From a virus (taxonomy: Duplodnaviria; Caudoviricetes), in the IMG/VR virus record IMGVR_UViG_3300044701_003603, positions 1-32,408 of that record: a stretch of 32,408 nucleotides of DNA; one strand, given 5' to 3'. A program made the position numbers and the translations under genes. The first letter of the stretch is position 1, and each line of letters begins with the position of its first letter. The notes below the pieces were generated by a model, which saw only the letters and a list, made by a program, of their open reading frames with translations, was not told the DNA's origin and ran no database searches. Shown here piece after piece: positions 21,541 to 32,408 of the stretch.

Positions 21541-22395
21541 ATGGGTGGAGGAAGACCGTCAGCACCAGCGCCGCAACCAGTGCCAGCCGCACCGGCGCCG
21601 ATTGATTACGATAAAATGGCCGCCGCGAGCATTCGCGTGGCGCAAGCGCAAACCCGCGAGGAAGAAGCGGCGATCAAGCGGTTGTATCCAGAATACATCC
21701 GCATGCAGTTCGGCACCGCCGACCAGCTCGCTGGTAGGCTCGACAACGAATACCTCCAGCGCACGCGCGGCGTCATCGGCGAGGAGCTGCAAGCGGCGTC
21801 CGCACCGAACGCCATTGAGGCGCAGCTTCAGCGGGATGCGGAGTCTGAACTCGCCCTCGGTCGCTCGCTCTCACCGGAGCAGATGCGCGAAGCCTCGCAG
21901 TCGGCACGCGCGGCGTTTGCTGCTCGCGGCCTTGGCACCTCGATGGGCAGCAGCGCGGCGGAGATTCTTAACCGTGATGCTTATGGCCAGCAGCGGCTAG
22001 ATGCGCGACGTGGCTTTGCGGCTGGCGTGAACACAATGGATTTGGCCCGCCGCGAACGACGTGTCGGACTGGCTGGCGCCTACATGGACATGGACCCCTA
22101 CCGTCAGGCTATCGGGCCAGCGTTTCAGCTTGGACTGGGCACACTGGGCAATACGACACAGCAGGTGAGCGGGATCTTTGGCAACTCGCTGCGCATGGGC
22201 GCTGGCGTCGAGACCTTCAACACGAATATGGCTGCGAGCAACCGCAACGCTATCCTCAACAATAATGCTGCGATGCAGGCGGCGTCTATGCAAGCTGGTG
22301 CCCAGCAGAACGCGGGCATGATGGGGATGTTTGGCGGGATCGGCGGCGGCATCGCTTCCGGCGCGGGCATGGCTATCGCGGGCGCCTCTTTCTAA
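21541..22395 (+). CDS. Internal virion / DNA ejection (pilot) protein
   Basis: MGGG-P-rich N-terminus, A/Q-rich helices with AARGLGTS, and a Gly-zipper hydrophobic C-tail (GMFGGIGGGIASGAGMAIAGASF). AGGAGG RBS. Confidence 0.7.
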   Translation: MGGGRPSAPAPQPVPAAPAPIDYDKMAAASIRVAQAQTREEEAAIKRLYPEYIRMQFGTADQLAGRLDNEYLQRTRGVIGEELQAASAPNAIEAQLQRDAESELALGRSLSPEQMREASQSARAAFAARGLGTSMGSSAAEILNRDAYGQQRLDARRGFAAGVNTMDLARRERRVGLAGAYMDMDPYRQAIGPAFQLGLGTLGNTTQQVSGIFGNSLRMGAGVETFNTNMAASNRNAILNNNAAMQAASMQAGAQQNAGMMGMFGGIGGGIASGAGMAIAGASF

Positions 22396-23204
22396 TGACC
22401 TACGAAGACAAAGTCTCCTACGCTCACCGGCTCATCGAGCAGTCGCTCGCCGAGTTTGGCAATCCGTGTATCGCTTGCTCGTTTGGCAAGGATAGCATGG
22501 TGGTGCTGGACTTGGTGCGGCGTCACCGCGATGACCTGCCGGTTGTCTTCCACCGCGAGCCTTGGCAGCCGCACAAGTATCGGTTCGCCGATGCGGTGAT
22601 CCAGCACTACGGACTGCGCGTCTACGATTTCCCGCCCTCGGCCACGATGGTGCAGGACGGCGGTGGCGAGGTGGAGATCGCCGGATACTACCAGATCGGC
22701 GCCCGCTACAATATGCTGCCGACCGGCATCCGCGCCCCGAAGGACGGCGAGGACTTTGTCTGCGGACTTGCGGACATCTACCAGCGGCCGACCGGCACGT
22801 TCAATTGGCCGTGGGATGCGATGTTCCATGGCCACAAGGCGAGCGATACGGATGCGGTCTACGGCGGCATCACGATCCGCACCGACGTGGCGCGCAATCT
22901 GGACAGCGCCAGCCTCGTCTTCCCCATCCGCCTCTTCACCGACGAGGACGTGTGGCGCTACATCGAGGAGAACAATTTGCCCATCCACCATGGCCGCTAC
23001 GAGAAGGTTGGCGAGTCATGGCAGGAGCGGGAGGACAAAGGTGACAACCCTGACTATGTGACCGCCTGCACGGCGTGCATGGCCAAGGACGGACCCGCCG
23101 AGGTGCTGTGCCCACGGCTTGGCCAACTGGTCAGCAATGTGAGCGATCAACTCCGGTGGTCACAAAAAGAACGCCCCAGCTACCTGCGGGCCGAAGCAGC
23201 TTAA
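22395..23204 (+). CDS. PAPS-reductase-family (PP-loop adenine nucleotide alpha-hydrolase) protein
   Basis: PP-loop ACSFGKDS, GHKASD, FPIRLFTDEDVWRYI, and CTAC...CP near the C-terminus. TAATG-coupled to the ejection gene. Confidence 0.82.
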   Translation: MTYEDKVSYAHRLIEQSLAEFGNPCIACSFGKDSMVVLDLVRRHRDDLPVVFHREPWQPHKYRFADAVIQHYGLRVYDFPPSATMVQDGGGEVEIAGYYQIGARYNMLPTGIRAPKDGEDFVCGLADIYQRPTGTFNWPWDAMFHGHKASDTDAVYGGITIRTDVARNLDSASLVFPIRLFTDEDVWRYIEENNLPIHHGRYEKVGESWQEREDKGDNPDYVTACTACMAKDGPAEVLCPRLGQLVSNVSDQLRWSQKERPSYLRAEAA

Positions 23205-24642: not shown

Positions 24643-27600
24643 ACGGATTAACCGACGAGCAGCTCGCCGAGCTGGAAGCGCAGCAAGGACAGCCGGAGAT
24701 CACCACCGGGCTGGTGGATCGCCTTGCCGCATCCCCTGCTCCGGCGCAGGGATTCACCGACCAGCAGCTTGATGCGCTGCCAATTCTGGCATCCACACCG
24801 TTCGCCCAAGAGCGAGGCATTGCCCTGCCTCCCGAAGCGCCTGAAGAGCCTGATATGCTTACCGATTACGAGCTGAACCAGCTTGAAGAGGAAGCCTACC
24901 GCCGCGTGGACTACATCATGCCGAAGGAAGAGTTTCGGCAATTTCACACGCGACGCAAGGAGGAGAACAACGAGGTCGGACGCTTCATCGATGGCGTGGG
25001 CCAAGGTGCCGCAGCCATGATTGGTATGCTGCCGCAGGCGGCGACCGAAATCACTGACGCGCTAATCGGCGGCGTGACCGATCCGATCAACCAAGCGCAG
25101 CGCAACATCCAGACCGGCGCGGAGATCGTCCGCAAGGCTGGCATCAACATGGTGCAGCTCTTCGACTGGGTCGGCAACAAAGCCAATGACGCGGCAACTT
25201 GGGCGAAGCGCCGCGGACTGAAGCAGCAGGCATTGGCCAAGCGCCTCGAGCAGGAAGGCAAACTGACCGGCGATGAGCTGCGGGACGCGAACATTATTGC
25301 CGCGGCGGCCAGCGAGGCGGATGCGATGGAGCCAACGCCGGTGGAGGAGGAAGAGGATTTCGACAAGGCTTACGAGCGCTACCAGCGGGAGAAGGCGCTA
25401 GAGCAGGAGTTCGCGGGAGTCACAGACTTTCAGATCGGCGCCAGCAAGGTGAGCGCGCCGGCGGCGACCAAGGAGGCTTACCAGATTACCGACGAGCAGC
25501 CTGCAGAGACGCTGTCGATGATCGGCTCCATGGTTGTCGATCCGGTTAATCTGCTTCCGGTAGGCGCGGGCGCGTTGAGCAAGCTGCGCGTGCTGCGCCG
25601 CACGGCAACACTCGCCGGCGCCCCACTTCGAGGCGTGCAGCGTGCAGCGGATGCCACGGCAGACCTCGCCGAGCGGGTGGAGTTTGGCATCAGCAGCCGC
25701 GTGCAGGACATCACCGGGCTGACCGCAAAACAGCAGGCAGCGCTGGGTGCCGGTGCGGCCGGTGCGGCAGTCTATGCGGACGCGGCGGGCGGCGGCGGCA
25801 ATGTGACTGCGGCGGTCACGGCCATCGGCAGCGTGCTGCCTGGGCTGCGTTACGGCGGCGCGATCATCCGCAAGACTGGCGCGGCGGCGGGCGGTGCGGC
25901 GACCATTATCCGCGAGGCGGGCGTAGGCGGCATCGGCACGGCGCGAGCGGAAGCAGCGGCGGACTTGGCGCGCATGACGGCGATCCCCGAGCGCTACCGG
26001 AAATACTTTACAGGCTACGTTGACGGCACCGACAGCACGCTCAAGCGTGTGGCGCAGGATGCTGGCAACCCAGAGGCGCTGCGCCGTGTGGCGCGCTTTG
26101 CCGACCGCGCTGGCGTGACCACGGCGGCTCGCCTAGCTGACGATGTGACGAGCGGGGCGGTGGCGGCTGGAATTACCGGAGCACCCTTCGCTGCATTGCA
26201 ACCGGATGCCGAGCGCGCCGGTGAGGTGCTTGGCGGCATCATGGCCCTGGGCGGTGTGGCCGGAGTCGCTGGCAGTGTGGCCCGCCGCGGAGCTACGGAA
26301 GCTGACGCGGACATCGCCCGCATGATGGCTGACGTATATGCGGTGGGCGGTAATGTGGATGCGTTTTCTGCGCTGCCTCACGCCTCACTGGACCGCATGG
26401 CGGCCATGCAAGGCGTGCTGGCTGGCAAGGTAGATTTCGTTCCCCTCAAGGCGGACGAATACCGAATGAACAAGGATGTGTCGGCGACCGGCGGCGAGCT
26501 GGCCGCGGGACTGTTCCTCGAGAAGGACGCCAACGGACGCGCCCGAGTCTTTATTAATCTTGACGCCCGCAAGTCGGCCGGCGGCGTGGACGCCATTGCT
26601 CCGCATGAGATTGGCCATGCCATCCTGACGAGCAACGTCCTTGATGGGCAGCCGCGCAACGACCTGCGCAACTTGGTCAACCAGCAATATGGACCGGACG
26701 GCGTGACCGCCCGCGGACGCGAGTATGTCGGGCGCTTGGTTGACGCGGACATCAACAACGGCACAACCGGCGAGCTGCCCCAAGTGCTCACGGAGCAAGA
26801 GTTCCGCGACTTTGAGAGCGGCAACAAGTCAGCGGCGGACATCTCCAAGGCGCGCAAGCTCGAGCCAGCCGAGCGCGAGAGGTTGATCAACGAGCGATAC
26901 GAGGAGCTGTCGCAGCGCAGCATTGAGCGCGGCGAGGACGCCCTGGACTGGGCGCGCGACGAGATCATCGCCGAGACATTTGCCAGCGAGGCGCCGGCCA
27001 TTGACTTCCGCGCCATCCGCCGCGATGCCGCCTTCCCTCGCCTCGCCGAGTCCATGCTGGCTACCGGCGGGCGCGTGCTGGAGATGATGGGTGTGCGCTT
27101 GGACAGCGGCACCGGCAAGATGTTGGACAATCCGTCTGTCCTCTTCCGCGACAACCCGCTCTTCCAAGACCGCATCATGCAGAAGCGCGTGAAGGAATAC
27201 GTCCGCGCCTACGATCAATTTTTGACCGGCCTCGAGGAGGCTGGCAGTGCAACGCCCCGCGGCGTAGAGCTGGCGCGCAGCAGCCGCCCGGAGGACTTGG
27301 CGCGCAGCACGCATGTCAAACTAAGGGACGAGGGCCGTGGCGTGTTGGAGAATGACTTCCTGTTCCAAAAGCCGGACGGCACCTACGCTTACAAGCCGCA
27401 GCCGATCATCAATGCCGCCGAGGCCAACCGCGCGGCGCAGATCAAGACGCTGTACGATGCGAAGAAGTTCGTGCCGGTCAACTCGACCGAGTTCGGCAAG
27501 CGCAAGGTCAACGGTCGCGAAGTCATCGGCGGGCCGGTGCTACCGCCGCAGTTTGACCTCTTCACGCAATTCCCGCAGCACGTCCGCCAGTTTGCCCGGG

Positions 27601-30600
27601 GTATGGAAGCCAGCCGCGCCGAGGGCGAAAGCTGGAACATCGACTACAACGCCATCGGCACCGGATCGAGCGGACGCTACCGCATCACCAACATGGGCGC
27701 CGTGCGCGCTATCCAGCGGGAGACCGTGCCGTTCGGCTGGCAGGTGACCAAGCAGAACCACCTGCTCGCCGCCTCGCTCGACCTCAACGCCTTCCGCTCG
27801 TCTGCTATGAAGGCGATCAACAAGGGCGAGCTAGGCATCTTCAACAACGACATGAAGCAGGTGGAGGCCGACCTCAAGACCTACCTCGCCAACCACCGCA
27901 ACGGCATGCCCGGAGAGGCGACCATCGGACAGCAGAAGCGCGACACGCTCAACGGACTCATCGGCACCGGAACGGCCGTCCAGCGCGCCGCCAACCCGCT
28001 CTACGCCGAGCTGAATCCCAAGGGCAGCATCCGCACTTGGCGCATCGACCGGCTCAACGATGCCCAGCCGAGCGGCCGCACCGGCTACTTCTTCGACTAC
28101 GACAAGATCAACAACAACCGCATGCCACAGCAGATTCCGCGGGAGGCTCAGGGGATGCCAGATGTGGCAACAGGCGGAACCCGCGGGCAGGCGATGCCGG
28201 ATGCTGAGGCTCGCTCAGGCGCCGCCGAAACTCTCGACCAATTAAAGCGTTCGCAATTTATCCCAACAAAAGTCGCCGCGGAAGTTGTCGGAGGATTCCC
28301 TGAGTATCTTCGCCCAGTCGCGCAATTCATCACCGACCAGCGGCAGAAGCTCGCCAACGGCCAGATCACTCGTCGCGATGTGATGAAGGCTTACGCCATG
28401 ACCATTGCCTCGCAGGGTTCTGGCGCCCGGGCCGTTGAGGTCATCGCCAACAACGTGGCCAAGGATGGCGTCCGGTTTCGTCCATCAAAGGACTTTACAA
28501 CGGCGGACAAAAAGGGACGCGCGGCCATCCGCCCCGAGGAAGCCGCAGCGTATTGGCTTGGCACCGACGCCGGCCAGAAGGCTCTAGACAACTTTGAGGC
28601 CGGCCGCTTTAGCCCAGACGACTGGAAGGAGCTGGTCGCCATTCGTAAAGCATACGGCGATGACCGCTTCAACAACCTCGGCGCGTTCAATCCCGACAAC
28701 ATTCGCACGATGGACAAGGTGCTGGCCGACTTAAACGCCAGCCGCGCGGACACCGGCAAGGTAATGGATGCAGTGCAGCGGCTCCGCGGCATCAAGACGG
28801 GCAAGAAGGGATTCATCGCGCACCTGCTCGGCATCGGCGACGTGCCGACCATTGATGCGGTCGAGATCAACTTCTGGCTGACCGGCAAGGCCGACATCGG
28901 CAAGCTAAACACGCGCAAGGCAACGCTGGCGCGCAGCGTCAAGGAGTCAATAAGCGACCGGCGCGTTAGCCAAGAGATGTTCCGGCGCATTGACCAACGG
29001 ATCAACGCTTTGCGGGACGAGGTTCCGGGCGGGGCAAATATTAGCCCAGAAGTCTGGTCGCACGTCATGCACCACTGGCTGTGGGATAAGTCGAAGGGTA
29101 TTGAGACAACGCATGAAGGCATGTATCGGGCGCAGGCGCAATTCATGCCTGACAGCGTCGTCAGCGATGAGGGCGGAACTGTATGGCGAGAACTGCAAGA
29201 CGCTCCTGTCATTACGCTGAAAGATCTTAAGGGACGCAAGGTATTCGCGGCGTTCGCAGATCTAACAAGCGCCGGCAAGATTTACCGCGGCATCGACTCA
29301 AGCGAGATTGCTGTTCCGGTTGAGACGCACGGCGGCCCCGAGTGGCCCTTGCTGCAGGCTGAGAAGGTCGGCAAGGAAACAAACGTGTGGTCGAACCAAG
29401 GTGCTGGCGTTTCGGCCATCAAGGCGCGGCGCGCCAACGAGGGGGCTATCATGCTCATCGCCGCAATGGATAAGAACGCGCATGTCAGCAACACTGAGAC
29501 GGCGACCGCGGTGATCGCAACAAATGCAGCGTATGCCCGCGACGGTCGTATCACGCCGGAAAATTTGGCCGCTCTCGACAACTCTATCCGCAAGGAAATT
29601 GAAGACTTTCCCGGCATCGAATCGCCGAGCATTATGGAATACGTCAACAAGCTGCCGTTCCAGGGCACTAAGAGCCGCGCGCGTATTGCTGAAATCCTTG
29701 AGTCGAAAAAATCGCAGGATCTCGGGGCGCCTAACGTGCAGCGCATTTTGGATGAGGTGCGCTCAGACCAATACGACGGACTACGCATCGGCGATGTGGT
29801 GTTAGCCATTGAGCTGACGCCAGGCGCTCCCGCAGTGAAGCTGGGCGAGCAGGGAACGCTTAAGCATCCTTCGTATCAGTATGGCTTGCGCGGTCGAGTA
29901 ATCGGACGGTTTGCGAGGCCGATCAACATTAGCTCAATTTTCGACGACTTCTACGCGCAGCGCCGAGCCGATGGTAAGCCAGAGCTTGGAGATCGTCGCG
30001 CTTTTGATCTGGCCAAGCCAGTGCAAGAGATTACCGACGCCATCGCATCGCGCATTCCTGGCACGCCATACAAGTCGTTCCGCTCGCCGCGGCATGCGCA
30101 GCTAATTGACATCGCCAAGGACGACAAGTGGAGGTCATCCAAGCAAACCGTAAAGGCTGGCGGTGTATCACCGGCGGCATTTATCGACGCACTCAACGCA
30201 TCGCCGGCGAAGCTGGCCCTTGATCGCTACACACTAAAGGGGCTGCAGGAAAAACTTGAGGCCGGTGCGATGTCGATATACCAGCTCGCTGACGCTCAGG
30301 TGTTTTTCGGCATTAAGCAGGGCGATCCCGCTTCCGCCTACGGACAAGACCCCGCGGCCTTTGGATTCGGGCCCAACGAGAAGACGCTGTCGCTGGTGCT
30401 TAACAACGAACGCAAGACGGGCGGAATGGCGGACGCGGTGGTTATTAAGGCGCTGCAGCTAGGCGTCACGGCGCTCGATTGCTTTGCGGTGAAGTCGGAA
30501 AAATATCCGAAGGGCATGCTGCCAAAACTTTATGCGTCATACGGCTTTGAACCTACTGGAAGCATCCCGTTTGACCCGTCCTTTTACAGCAAGTTGGAAC

Positions 30601-30974
30601 TTGCAGACCTAAAGAAATACTGGAAATCTATTGGGTGGGATGAAAGCACTGGCCTGCCAGAAATCACCCTAATGAAATGGAGAGGAAACGATGAACTCAG
30701 AACAAAAAGCCTACGAGAAATTATTGAGCAAGGTGGACAAGGTGTTCGGGGAAACCCTGGACAAGTTGTCGCCGACACAAGAAGCCGTCGTAAATCGGCT
30801 GCTGGATCTGTCGGTCGAGGAAAGCGGCGGGCCGGACAAGGTGACGCTGGCGCAGGTGCAGGGAGTCAAGGAGATGTTGGAGGAGGAGTTCGGATTAGCC
30901 GCGGCTTCCTAGACGCCAACACTGAGCTGCTTTCTCTTTCGCCCGCGGAATTGCGCAACCTCGGAATACAATAG
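24624..30974 (+). CDS. Giant internal virion / polyvalent protein (2116 aa): Gly/Ala-rich membrane-active region, HExxH metallopeptidase-like, HhH-GPD-like and GNAT-like domains
   Basis: LTDxQL N-terminal repeats; PHEIGH (26601-26618) plus EIIAE; LRGIKTGKKGFIAHLLGIGDVPTID; LDCF...LPKLYASYGFEP. Last gene of the virion operon; AAGGAG upstream. Confidence 0.8.
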   Translation: MVPSSLDGLTDEQLAELEAQQGQPEITTGLVDRLAASPAPAQGFTDQQLDALPILASTPFAQERGIALPPEAPEEPDMLTDYELNQLEEEAYRRVDYIMPKEEFRQFHTRRKEENNEVGRFIDGVGQGAAAMIGMLPQAATEITDALIGGVTDPINQAQRNIQTGAEIVRKAGINMVQLFDWVGNKANDAATWAKRRGLKQQALAKRLEQEGKLTGDELRDANIIAAAASEADAMEPTPVEEEEDFDKAYERYQREKALEQEFAGVTDFQIGASKVSAPAATKEAYQITDEQPAETLSMIGSMVVDPVNLLPVGAGALSKLRVLRRTATLAGAPLRGVQRAADATADLAERVEFGISSRVQDITGLTAKQQAALGAGAAGAAVYADAAGGGGNVTAAVTAIGSVLPGLRYGGAIIRKTGAAAGGAATIIREAGVGGIGTARAEAAADLARMTAIPERYRKYFTGYVDGTDSTLKRVAQDAGNPEALRRVARFADRAGVTTAARLADDVTSGAVAAGITGAPFAALQPDAERAGEVLGGIMALGGVAGVAGSVARRGATEADADIARMMADVYAVGGNVDAFSALPHASLDRMAAMQGVLAGKVDFVPLKADEYRMNKDVSATGGELAAGLFLEKDANGRARVFINLDARKSAGGVDAIAPHEIGHAILTSNVLDGQPRNDLRNLVNQQYGPDGVTARGREYVGRLVDADINNGTTGELPQVLTEQEFRDFESGNKSAADISKARKLEPAERERLINERYEELSQRSIERGEDALDWARDEIIAETFASEAPAIDFRAIRRDAAFPRLAESMLATGGRVLEMMGVRLDSGTGKMLDNPSVLFRDNPLFQDRIMQKRVKEYVRAYDQFLTGLEEAGSATPRGVELARSSRPEDLARSTHVKLRDEGRGVLENDFLFQKPDGTYAYKPQPIINAAEANRAAQIKTLYDAKKFVPVNSTEFGKRKVNGREVIGGPVLPPQFDLFTQFPQHVRQFARGMEASRAEGESWNIDYNAIGTGSSGRYRITNMGAVRAIQRETVPFGWQVTKQNHLLAASLDLNAFRSSAMKAINKGELGIFNNDMKQVEADLKTYLANHRNGMPGEATIGQQKRDTLNGLIGTGTAVQRAANPLYAELNPKGSIRTWRIDRLNDAQPSGRTGYFFDYDKINNNRMPQQIPREAQGMPDVATGGTRGQAMPDAEARSGAAETLDQLKRSQFIPTKVAAEVVGGFPEYLRPVAQFITDQRQKLANGQITRRDVMKAYAMTIASQGSGARAVEVIANNVAKDGVRFRPSKDFTTADKKGRAAIRPEEAAAYWLGTDAGQKALDNFEAGRFSPDDWKELVAIRKAYGDDRFNNLGAFNPDNIRTMDKVLADLNASRADTGKVMDAVQRLRGIKTGKKGFIAHLLGIGDVPTIDAVEINFWLTGKADIGKLNTRKATLARSVKESISDRRVSQEMFRRIDQRINALRDEVPGGANISPEVWSHVMHHWLWDKSKGIETTHEGMYRAQAQFMPDSVVSDEGGTVWRELQDAPVITLKDLKGRKVFAAFADLTSAGKIYRGIDSSEIAVPVETHGGPEWPLLQAEKVGKETNVWSNQGAGVSAIKARRANEGAIMLIAAMDKNAHVSNTETATAVIATNAAYARDGRITPENLAALDNSIRKEIEDFPGIESPSIMEYVNKLPFQGTKSRARIAEILESKKSQDLGAPNVQRILDEVRSDQYDGLRIGDVVLAIELTPGAPAVKLGEQGTLKHPSYQYGLRGRVIGRFARPINISSIFDDFYAQRRADGKPELGDRRAFDLAKPVQEITDAIASRIPGTPYKSFRSPRHAQLIDIAKDDKWRSSKQTVKAGGVSPAAFIDALNASPAKLALDRYTLKGLQEKLEAGAMSIYQLADAQVFFGIKQGDPASAYGQDPAAFGFGPNEKTLSLVLNNERKTGGMADAVVIKALQLGVTALDCFAVKSEKYPKGMLPKLYASYGFEPTGSIPFDPSFYSKLELADLKKYWKSIGWDESTGLPEITLMKWRGNDELRTKSLREIIEQGGQGVRGNPGQVVADTRSRRKSAAGSVGRGKRRAGQGDAGAGAGSQGDVGGGVRISRGFLDANTELLSLSPAELRNLGIQ
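30691..30912 (+). CDS. Nested out-of-frame 73-aa acidic helical protein inside the 3' end of the giant gene
   Basis: GGAGAGGA RBS (30679-30686) before the ATG; amphipathic helical sequence, while the host frame over it is G/R-rich low complexity. Confidence 0.55.
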   Translation: MNSEQKAYEKLLSKVDKVFGETLDKLSPTQEAVVNRLLDLSVEESGGPDKVTLAQVQGVKEMLEEEFGLAAAS

Positions 30975-31001: not shown

Positions 31002-31031
31002 AAGGGTCAGCTACGGCTGGCCCTTTCATTT
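31002..31031. terminator. Rho-independent terminator between the convergent virion operon and integrase
   Basis: AAGGGTCAGC-TACG-GCTGGCCCTT hairpin followed by TCATTTT; abuts the integrase stop. Confidence 0.7.
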
Positions 31032-32141
31032 TGTCCCAAAGATTCCCTCTGGCAGCGTCACGCTCGACTCATAAGTCGCATAGTGCCGCAGCGTCACGGC
31101 CGCGCTGGTATGGCCTAGCAGTTTCGACACCAGGCTAATCTTCCCGGTGGCCACCAGCCAATCGCTGCCGGCCTGCTTGCGCAGCGTGTAGAGGAGCTGC
31201 TCGCGGTCTGGCATGTAGCCGCGGAGGAAGGCGTTGAAGACTCGCATGAGCCAGTTGTAGCGAGTGTATGGCGTTCCTCCAGGGATGCCGTAGTCATCGC
31301 AGGCAAGCAGCTCGGCGGCCATGTCTGGCGGGATGCCGATGTCGCGCTCGCCGCGGCTGCCGGTCTTCAGCGCAAAGTCTTCCGAGGGGCGCTGCCGCAC
31401 GCACAGGAAGTGCTGTTCCCCTCGCCTCTCAATCCAGCCCTTGCGGAAGCCGGCGATCTCGCTGGGACGCAGTCCGAGGTAGCGCGCCAAGATCCATGCC
31501 CGCCGGATGCCGCCGCCTGTGACCTTGGTTGCCTTGTCGATCTCCTCCAAGGTCTCCGCGGGCAATGGCTGGAAGGCGTCCAAGTGGACGCGCAGCCCGG
31601 TGCGGGTGCAGGCGTCGCGGAACTCGCCCATGTCTGGCAGGCCATCGAAGCCCTCCCAGTCGTTCTGCCGCGCGAAGATCGCCCGGGCGCTGGCGAGGCA
31701 GGACTTCTGCGTGCTGGTCTTCACCTTGGCGTTCTTCAAGTAGGCGGCGACCAAGGCGCGGTTAAGGCGGGAGAGCGCAAGGTCGCGGACCTTCTGGCCG
31801 TCATCGGTCTGCAGGGCAGCCTTGATCACGCGGTAGAGGCAATTCACATTGTCCCTGCGAAAAGCCACTGTGCTGGTCGCCAAGTAATGGTCACAAGCCT
31901 TGCCAACCGTGGAGCTGGTGTCGCGCCGGGAGAAGTCTCGCAGCGCGGCAATGCCCTCGTCCGCGGTGCGCTCGAGGATGGCTTTGGCCTTGGCCTTGGC
32001 GGTCGGCAGGTCGGAGGTGGCGAGGCTGATGCGCTGGCGGCGCCGTTTCTCCGGGTGATAAAACCTCAGCCGGTAATACGGCGACTCGGGGATGAGATGA
32101 ATAGTTCCGGTGAGTCCGCGTGTGGTGATCTTGATATCCAT
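31026..32141 (-). CDS. int: Tyrosine recombinase / phage integrase
   Basis: N-terminal arm-binding-like YYRLRFYHP...RISLAT, then catalytic GLRPSE, LKT, YTLRK, LLGHTS and RHYA. ATG 32141 is preferred because the extension to 32246 runs through the repeats. Confidence 0.9.
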   Translation of the reverse strand: MDIKITTRGLTGTIHLIPESPYYRLRFYHPEKRRRQRISLATSDLPTAKAKAKAILERTADEGIAALRDFSRRDTSSTVGKACDHYLATSTVAFRRDNVNCLYRVIKAALQTDDGQKVRDLALSRLNRALVAAYLKNAKVKTSTQKSCLASARAIFARQNDWEGFDGLPDMGEFRDACTRTGLRVHLDAFQPLPAETLEEIDKATKVTGGGIRRAWILARYLGLRPSEIAGFRKGWIERRGEQHFLCVRQRPSEDFALKTGSRGERDIGIPPDMAAELLACDDYGIPGGTPYTRYNWLMRVFNAFLRGYMPDREQLLYTLRKQAGSDWLVATGKISLVSKLLGHTSAAVTLRHYATYESSVTLPEGIFGTK

Positions 32142-32265: not shown

Positions 32266-32292
32266 CCACAATAACAGACTAAAACAAACTTT

Positions 32293-32332
32293 GCTCCCGT
32301 AGCTCAGGGGATAGAGCAGCGGATTTCTAATC
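32293..32332 (+). other. 5' half of tRNA-Arg(UCU): putative attP core (not a complete tRNA)
   Basis: GCTCCCG-TA-GCTC AGGGGATA GAGC-A-GCGGA TTTCTAA TC gives the acceptor 5' strand, D arm and anticodon loop with TCT. No T arm or acceptor 3' strand follows. Adjacent to the integrase. Confidence 0.85.
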
Positions 32333-32408
32333 TTTGCTCTACCCCTGTCGCTATGCGGGTTTCCGGCTGTCGTGCCGGATAGTGTGTCAGCATTGTAACT
32401 ACAACTTT

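Follow-up and report, generated by a model that had tools for sequence, protein, structure and literature searches.

The giant gene that closes the virion block of this phage raises the question of whether a short second reading frame near its 3' end is a gene in its own right and, if so, what its product does to the predicted GNAT domain encoded just upstream. The window, i.e. the whole stretch of DNA that was analysed (32,408 nucleotides), represents a whole virus record of 32.4 kb, in which Pfam and PHROG searches revealed genes for DnaB, SSB, an exonuclease, terminase, an SU10-type capsid protein, tailspikes, an ejection-type protein and an integrase. The ORF preceding the giant gene matches phrog_2534 ('released from the phage upon host infection'), and the giant protein, to which no match was found in Pfam or PHROGs, is likely packaged and ejected, as judged from its position. 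Its HEIGH motif at residue 661 (26604-26618) is likely a zincin metallopeptidase site, as in polyvalent proteins. Q-[G/A/F]-M-P-D repeats stand at module junctions (giant residues 1176, 1189 and 1506; about 28149, 28188 and 29139), occur in relatives too and could possibly be cleavage, restart or recombination joints. An optional domain at giant residues about 1195-1505 (window about 28200-29130) is missing from two relatives (P0046 and P0056); database searches with it gave no match, and we take it to resemble a helix-hairpin-helix DNA glycosylase. A PAPS-reductase-family gene lies within the virion block (22395-23204), and the 5' half of a tRNA-Arg(TCT)-like sequence, recognised by eye directly upstream of the integrase gene (32290-32333), is a possible attP; ARAGORN found no tRNA in this stretch and Rfam no tRNA match.

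Table 1. Features of the giant gene and of the nested frame, in window coordinates.
Feature	Position	Strand	Evidence or remark
Giant modular (polyvalent-type) protein, 2116 aa	24624..30974	+	Last gene of virion block
Upstream domain of ~300 aa	29187..30086	+	Confident in AF2; conserved D, GGP, W, H-x-S-N, F, R, H residues
GNAT-fold domain, predicted acyltransferase	30099..30686	+	Giant residues about 1826-2021; model residues about 305-505
GNAT residues 1961-1978 including K1968 (30525-30527), predicted contact patch for nested protein	30504..30557	+	Columns 1963 and 1968
Shine-Dalgarno-like GGAGAGGA inside W-R-G codons	30679..30686	+	Sequence; purine-rich equivalents in 33/33 loci
Main-frame helices after GNAT core, both frames coding	30690..30734	+	AF2 helices 502-516
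Nested +1-frame gene, 73 aa, predicted three-helix protein, likely cognate inhibitor	30691..30912	+	Stop 30910-30912
Main-frame G/R/Q/S/A-rich linker, predicted disordered, apparently unconstrained	30735..30884	+	pLDDT <50, model residues 517-566; pN/pS
Conserved main-frame tail (EL..LSP.EL.NLG), predicted folded	30900..30974	+	Alignment; pLDDT 86-92
Terminator-like hairpin, 10-bp stem	31002..31033	+	3' of giant gene; 3 sites by scan vs 1.2 expected, weak alone

The nested frame is +1 relative to the 2116-aa ORF. Its start region consists, in this order, of GGAGAGGA (30679-30686), AACG and the ATG at 30691, and the main frame reads W-R-G-N-D-E across it. The original prediction that a ribosome-binding site and an ATG inside the giant ORF open an acidic +1 ORF of 73 aa holds at these coordinates, and the encoded protein carries a net charge of -6 as counted from the sequence. 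Two in-frame stops are located five codons upstream of the nested ORF in the +1 frame. Twelve nested ATG ORFs of at least 35 aa were counted inside the giant gene, and an SD-like run was seen by eye in the one at 30691 only; a scan of 48 long frames gave no other convincing nested gene. Over the overlap, the GC3 of the main frame falls to 0.35-0.38 and its GC1 rises to 0.77. The nested protein was modelled by AlphaFold as three helices without any strand (pLDDT 92); it had no match in Pfam or PHROGs, and neither sequence search nor Foldseek returned anything for it from the PDB.

A scan with the GNAT alignment yielded 34 viral loci, one of them without downstream DNA, and the remaining 33 (24 distinct) were assessed. 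In all 33 a +1 ATG lies at most two codons from KW.G and opens at least 73 codons, the +2 frame is open in none of the same 24 distinct loci, and in related loci the +1 frame contains 5-11 stops over the 150 codons preceding the nested gene. One search pattern ended in MKW, so that K-W was partly selected for, and the ATG and the open frame were not. Because every assessed locus keeps start and frame, while the +2 frame is closed and the upstream +1 frame is ridden with stops, the nested ORF is more than a product of chance. Stops, or a loss of the ATG or RBS, were looked for among the homologues as signs against the gene; start, open frame and purine-rich SD are retained throughout the 33 loci. 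Six DNA copies (15 pairs) gave a pN/pS over the overlap of 0.10-0.61 for the nested frame versus 0.84-2.2 for the main frame, and over the 188 codons upstream the relation was reversed in the same copies, with 0.11-0.36 for the main frame versus 1.26-2.85 for the +1 frame. This frame-specific check bears out the selection that had been proposed to act on the nested frame, which is constrained where the main frame is not.

The nested sequences diverge considerably, with identities to the window copy down to 18%, and retain a hydrophobic pattern and two glycines. When the profile of the close family was compared with the nested ORF of locus L028, the match was weak (probability 2.7%), and homology of the deepest nested members is suggested by position and multiple alignment. 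The arrangement is not a one-off, since the GNAT module forms about 208 clusters at 50% identity and the nested family comprises 521 members at 90% clustering. The wider family was surveyed at the protein level, by signatures instead of DNA, in the 150 of the 208 GNAT-module clusters that were listed. A regular expression recovered W.G with 75 aa after it in 111 relatives, 105 of which carry a dipeptide compatible with a +1 ATG, versus 21% of control windows; Met accounts for 0.1% in these relatives versus a background of 1.5%. A forced-stop dipeptide test, with just 6 Met, gave 1 case versus 0.8 expected. By profile alignment, 139 of the 150 relatives qualified, and among these 126 were ATG-compatible and 134 had a G/R/Q/S/A-rich linker (protein only). 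By every sequence test applied the nested gene is real, and these signatures suggest that the hidden gene is widespread among related phages.

The last 595 aa of the giant protein were predicted by AF2 as one unit (pLDDT 86, pTM 0.84). A sparse search with the upstream domain gave no PDB assignment, with no sequence match in the PDB and no usable Atlas match. The description of the following domain as GNAT-like is supported by predicted structure and not by Pfam, in which no match to the domain was found. VIA-align of the predicted model gave a best Z of 12.5 (rmsd 3.1, 146 aligned), the matches listed being of GNAT type, and the best Foldseek matches listed were acetyltransferases, the best having an E of 1.8e-3 and none an E <= 0.001. 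The conserved columns N, G, LD and G-LP--Y--GF presumably correspond to the GNAT motifs.

Over the overlap the main frame is G/R/Q-rich, and a helical tail resumes at the nested stop, as had been noticed from the letters; the AF2 model places the tail helices from about nt 30900. A loose form of the tail motif was present in 70 of 111 relatives. Disorder in the 595-aa module is confined to model residues 517-566 in mid-overlap and the tail after the nested stop is confidently predicted, so that the nested gene coincides with what is predicted to be a loop in a folded module. One relative (P0271) has no linker, its flanking helices being joined directly; since the linker is missing there and pN/pS is high over it, the linker represents the unconstrained frame. 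The view that the nested gene was overprinted on the giant gene is thus probably backwards, the main-frame linker being the unconstrained partner and absent from P0271. The arrangement could have arisen either by engulfment of a downstream gene or by entry of a gene into a loop. In P0271, P0277 and P0288, more G/R/S-rich linkers beside other domains upstream of GNATs look, at the protein level, like the main-frame shadow of other nested genes.

The product of the nested 73-aa gene is probably an allele-matched inhibitor, which would act by binding the predicted GNAT domain encoded just upstream. The charge at the end of nested helix 2 varies with the identity of GNAT residue 1968, and a K/E swap is accompanied by a nested charge swap in three lineages. 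Among 26 DNA-backed pairs, a segment charge of -2/-3 accompanies K1968 in all 9 cases, one of +1 to +3 accompanies D/E1968 in 8 of 10 cases, and all 7 pairs with another residue at this site have a charge of 0 to +3; the two D/E exceptions (L046 and L047) have E1968 yet a segment that is still acidic, and both gain an Arg relative to the K-type sister. Columns 1963 and 1968 are the only ones that separate the nested alleles in all three lineages. In the best-sampled lineage, 7 of 166 variable columns separate the alleles, 6 of them in 1961-1978, none in 1979-2021 and 1 upstream, and the DNA between the patch and the nested gene contains no separating columns. Simple linkage fits poorly, because a locus often differs in allele from its nearest relatives over the flanking DNA: P0050 and P0047 share 98% identity upstream and are of opposite allele type, and the intervening stretch of L041 is nearest to those of P0045 and P0046, again of opposite type. 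The complementary swap appeared in 1 of 3136 relabelings, the observed one, in a test that ignores kinship, is post hoc (the pattern was first seen by eye) and takes five labels from protein only. The grouping left out L048 and L047, the marine group covered only 203 columns, and one of the three covarying lineages is represented by one pair, separated by 13 differences. In a naive column-pair charge scan, 1606-25 was the top pair and 18 pairs, including 1963-44, tied for the next score; 1968 did not stand out, a miss that probably stems from the alignment of the marine key residue as an insertion. The helix carrying the patch 1961-1978 presumably borders the CoA site, which would suit an inhibitor.

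Alternatively, the inhibitor could act on the upstream domain, or on the enzyme formed by both domains. AF2 predicts the two as one unit, 112 of 119 GNAT relatives with room upstream keep the upstream domain, and 6 of the 7 relatives without it are also without the nested signature, so that both were lost together in about two lineages (P0271 and a group of five). As judged from these proteins, some GNATs do without a nested partner. However, the joint losses amount to only two apparently independent events, the seventh relative (P0272) keeps the linker without the upstream domain, and the covarying columns are in the GNAT, with a single separating column upstream in the best-sampled lineage (the marine test extending over 203 columns only); we consider this target unlikely.

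The cognate-inhibitor reading gains a second, indirect line of evidence from copies of the small gene that stand alone. In 7 of 8 metagenome loci the gene is stand-alone, its main frame closed by stops and no GNAT present on the contig, where absence refers to the available contig DNA, as only L013 and L017 include more than 2 kb upstream. These orphans come after three small ORFs, amid GspD-like, TPR, trypsin, GIY-YIG and DUF488 genes, and the contigs appear to be cellular and non-viral. The cassette before the orphan (L013 3272-4096; L017 1679-2479) contains conserved ORFs of 82, 58/78 and 51 aa with ATGA overlaps, and L013 and L017 have different orphan alleles at the same cassette slot. 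The similarity of another copy (L063, in GTDB genome G001) to phage DNA begins about 37 bp ahead of the ATG (M-P-K-L-V-I-M-K-W-K-G-D, the last GNAT strand) and reaches nearly to the gene end. The copy keeps, as a relic, 13 codons of the GNAT end and carries SD and ATG along; because this relic is retained, the direction in this case was from phage to host. No GNAT match beyond the relic was found in G001, an incomplete MAG, and this orphan, like those on the seven metagenome contigs over their available DNA, is kept without a cognate effector. With a GC of 0.386, compared with 0.37-0.40 in six other contigs, L063 shows no sign of mis-binning, but its host label carries no weight in the argument. 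The copy is surrounded by small ORFs and an adjoining type I restriction-modification operon (HsdM, HsdS, DUF4268, HsdR), and it is the only defence-adjacent orphan seen. Two tandem small ORFs beside the orphan and the operon (L063 7448-7846; 66 and 64 aa, 72% identical) gave no family. Searches for cassette neighbours as nested phage genes found none for the 51-aa gene and one 16-aa match, disregarded, for the 66-aa gene.

The orphan gene occurs in 1 of 31 genomes of the family of G001, and a GTDB scan with the freshwater family gave none. Supported branches force four DNA-verified orphans into at least three places of a tree that is short and poorly resolved, and the orphans include both charge types. 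Many database members with other C-termini may be orphans too. Viral matches were all nested where judgeable (5 of 5 in one search and 13 of 14 in another, the remaining one being truncated). In L011, a copy that otherwise resembles that of L009 has a stop codon within its GNAT, at about 6640, and an intact nested gene; this is either a broken gene or an assembly error. Repeated capture of the nested gene by hosts, for which these copies appear to be good indirect evidence, had not been anticipated by the original prediction; its proposal of a cognate inhibitor is supported, indirectly, by the charge covariation with the GNAT and by the orphan copies in non-viral DNA.

The covariation shows at most contact and not its sign, and co-translation from one mRNA would suit an assembly factor. 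A chaperone, packaging adaptor or activator that binds the module is nevertheless improbable, as it would not explain the intact stand-alone copies without the module on contigs and in one genome. We regard as decidedly improbable a small protein with a job of its own, such as host takeover or superinfection exclusion, whose adjacency to the GNAT reflects history and linkage: the gene does exist alone in bacteria-like DNA and adjacent sites share history, but its position behind the GNAT recurs in proteins that differ greatly and range from about 650 to 4000 aa, the allele matching cuts across the intervening DNA, and no viral match was stand-alone. That the +1 frame is an alternative C-terminus reached by programmed frameshifting, as the identical +1 offset in all loci might suggest, is highly improbable given the conserved SD and ATG, the two in-frame stops five codons upstream and the SD and ATG taken along by the captured L063 copy.

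In the most likely mechanism, initiation on the late mRNA at the SD within the W-R-G codons would yield inhibitor along with every effector, and the inhibitor would keep the GNAT module inactive in the producing cell during virion assembly. The effector would then be packaged, ejected and act unopposed in the next cell, where a captured matching orphan could enable bacteria to blunt it. No sigma70-type promoter was found upstream of the nested gene, internally or at the orphan; as none lies upstream, the nested gene is more simply read as co-expressed with the late gene, and the protection of the lysogen that had also been suggested is not supported. A broader account, which we offer tentatively, is that phages of aquatic habitats carry, concealed in a second frame, the antidote to an acetyltransferase delivered by the virion; lying within a loop of the module, the antidote could move only together with the enzyme, and the enzyme only with it. 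The two might co-diversify by charge swaps, bacteria might repeatedly excise the antidote with its RBS into small-gene cassettes as a stolen anti-phage defence, and G/R-rich linkers of polyvalent proteins may hide more such genes missed by annotation. If true, this would represent a mechanism of self-protection for polyvalent virion proteins that is invisible to gene callers, and the nested gene would be a marker of which polyvalent domains are toxic. The reading also points to a contact that can be tested, between GNAT residue 1968 and nested helix 2, with natural allele pairs suited to a cross-protection test, and suggests a route to bacterial anti-phage genes by taking the phage's own antidote.

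Among known systems, TacAT and AtaRT are type II toxin-antitoxin systems with GNAT toxins, whose antitoxins are ribbon-helix-helix proteins encoded upstream. The locus resembles them in combining a GNAT enzyme with a small antidote, and differs in that the partner gene is nested downstream of the domain and its product is predicted as all-helical, with no strand. MuF toxins of temperate phages are followed by a small putative immunity ORF in 89.4% of 191 toxin genes, according to the accessible part of PMC5576092. The likeness to these pairs, as described there, consists in a head-associated phage effector followed by a small ORF, and marine relatives of our module come directly after the portal gene, which is the MuF toxin position. 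As in MuF systems, a small ORF (<150 aa) is tied to the end of the effector domain, in all 33 loci, but it is nested and not downstream: it is read in another frame within the effector ORF, which continues with conserved sequence beyond it. Host orphan copies, found here, are absent from that part of the MuF account (PMC5576092), and Pfam profiles, which did not comprise MuF3 and MuF4, gave no MuF domain match in the giant protein of the window or in the L070 protein.

In the Rpn systems, the intragenic antitoxin RpnS is the in-frame C-terminus of the bacterial nuclease RpnL (PMC10400984; accessible part of 10.1101/2023.05.02.539157), inhibition is variant-specific and decoupled copies occur occasionally (PMC10400984). 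The present locus likewise has a gene within a gene, with a predicted internal start (a conserved SD and ATG read from the sequence), putative variant-specific inhibition and decoupled copies, and unlike RpnS the nested partner is +1 out of frame, unrelated in sequence to the effector and on the phage side. Polyvalent phage proteins, as far as the available text of PMC5512222 describes them, with two families of GNATs, resemble the giant protein in being large modular virion-block proteins with GNAT and metallopeptidase-type domains, both predicted here. The module moves among proteins of differing size and context; the giant protein had no LPD or other Pfam match. In the available main text of PMC5512222, the terms 'overlap', 'linker' and 'low complexity' occur 0 times. 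The stand-alone copies are similar to orphan T6SS immunity genes and acquired interbacterial defence islands, which, in the accessible part of PMC8189183, are kept without the effector, some with remnants, in arrays of small genes; unlike those orphans, the source is a phage virion gene, so that the benefit would be anti-phage. The literature searched, largely its open-access part, described no out-of-frame nested partner in a phage virion protein.
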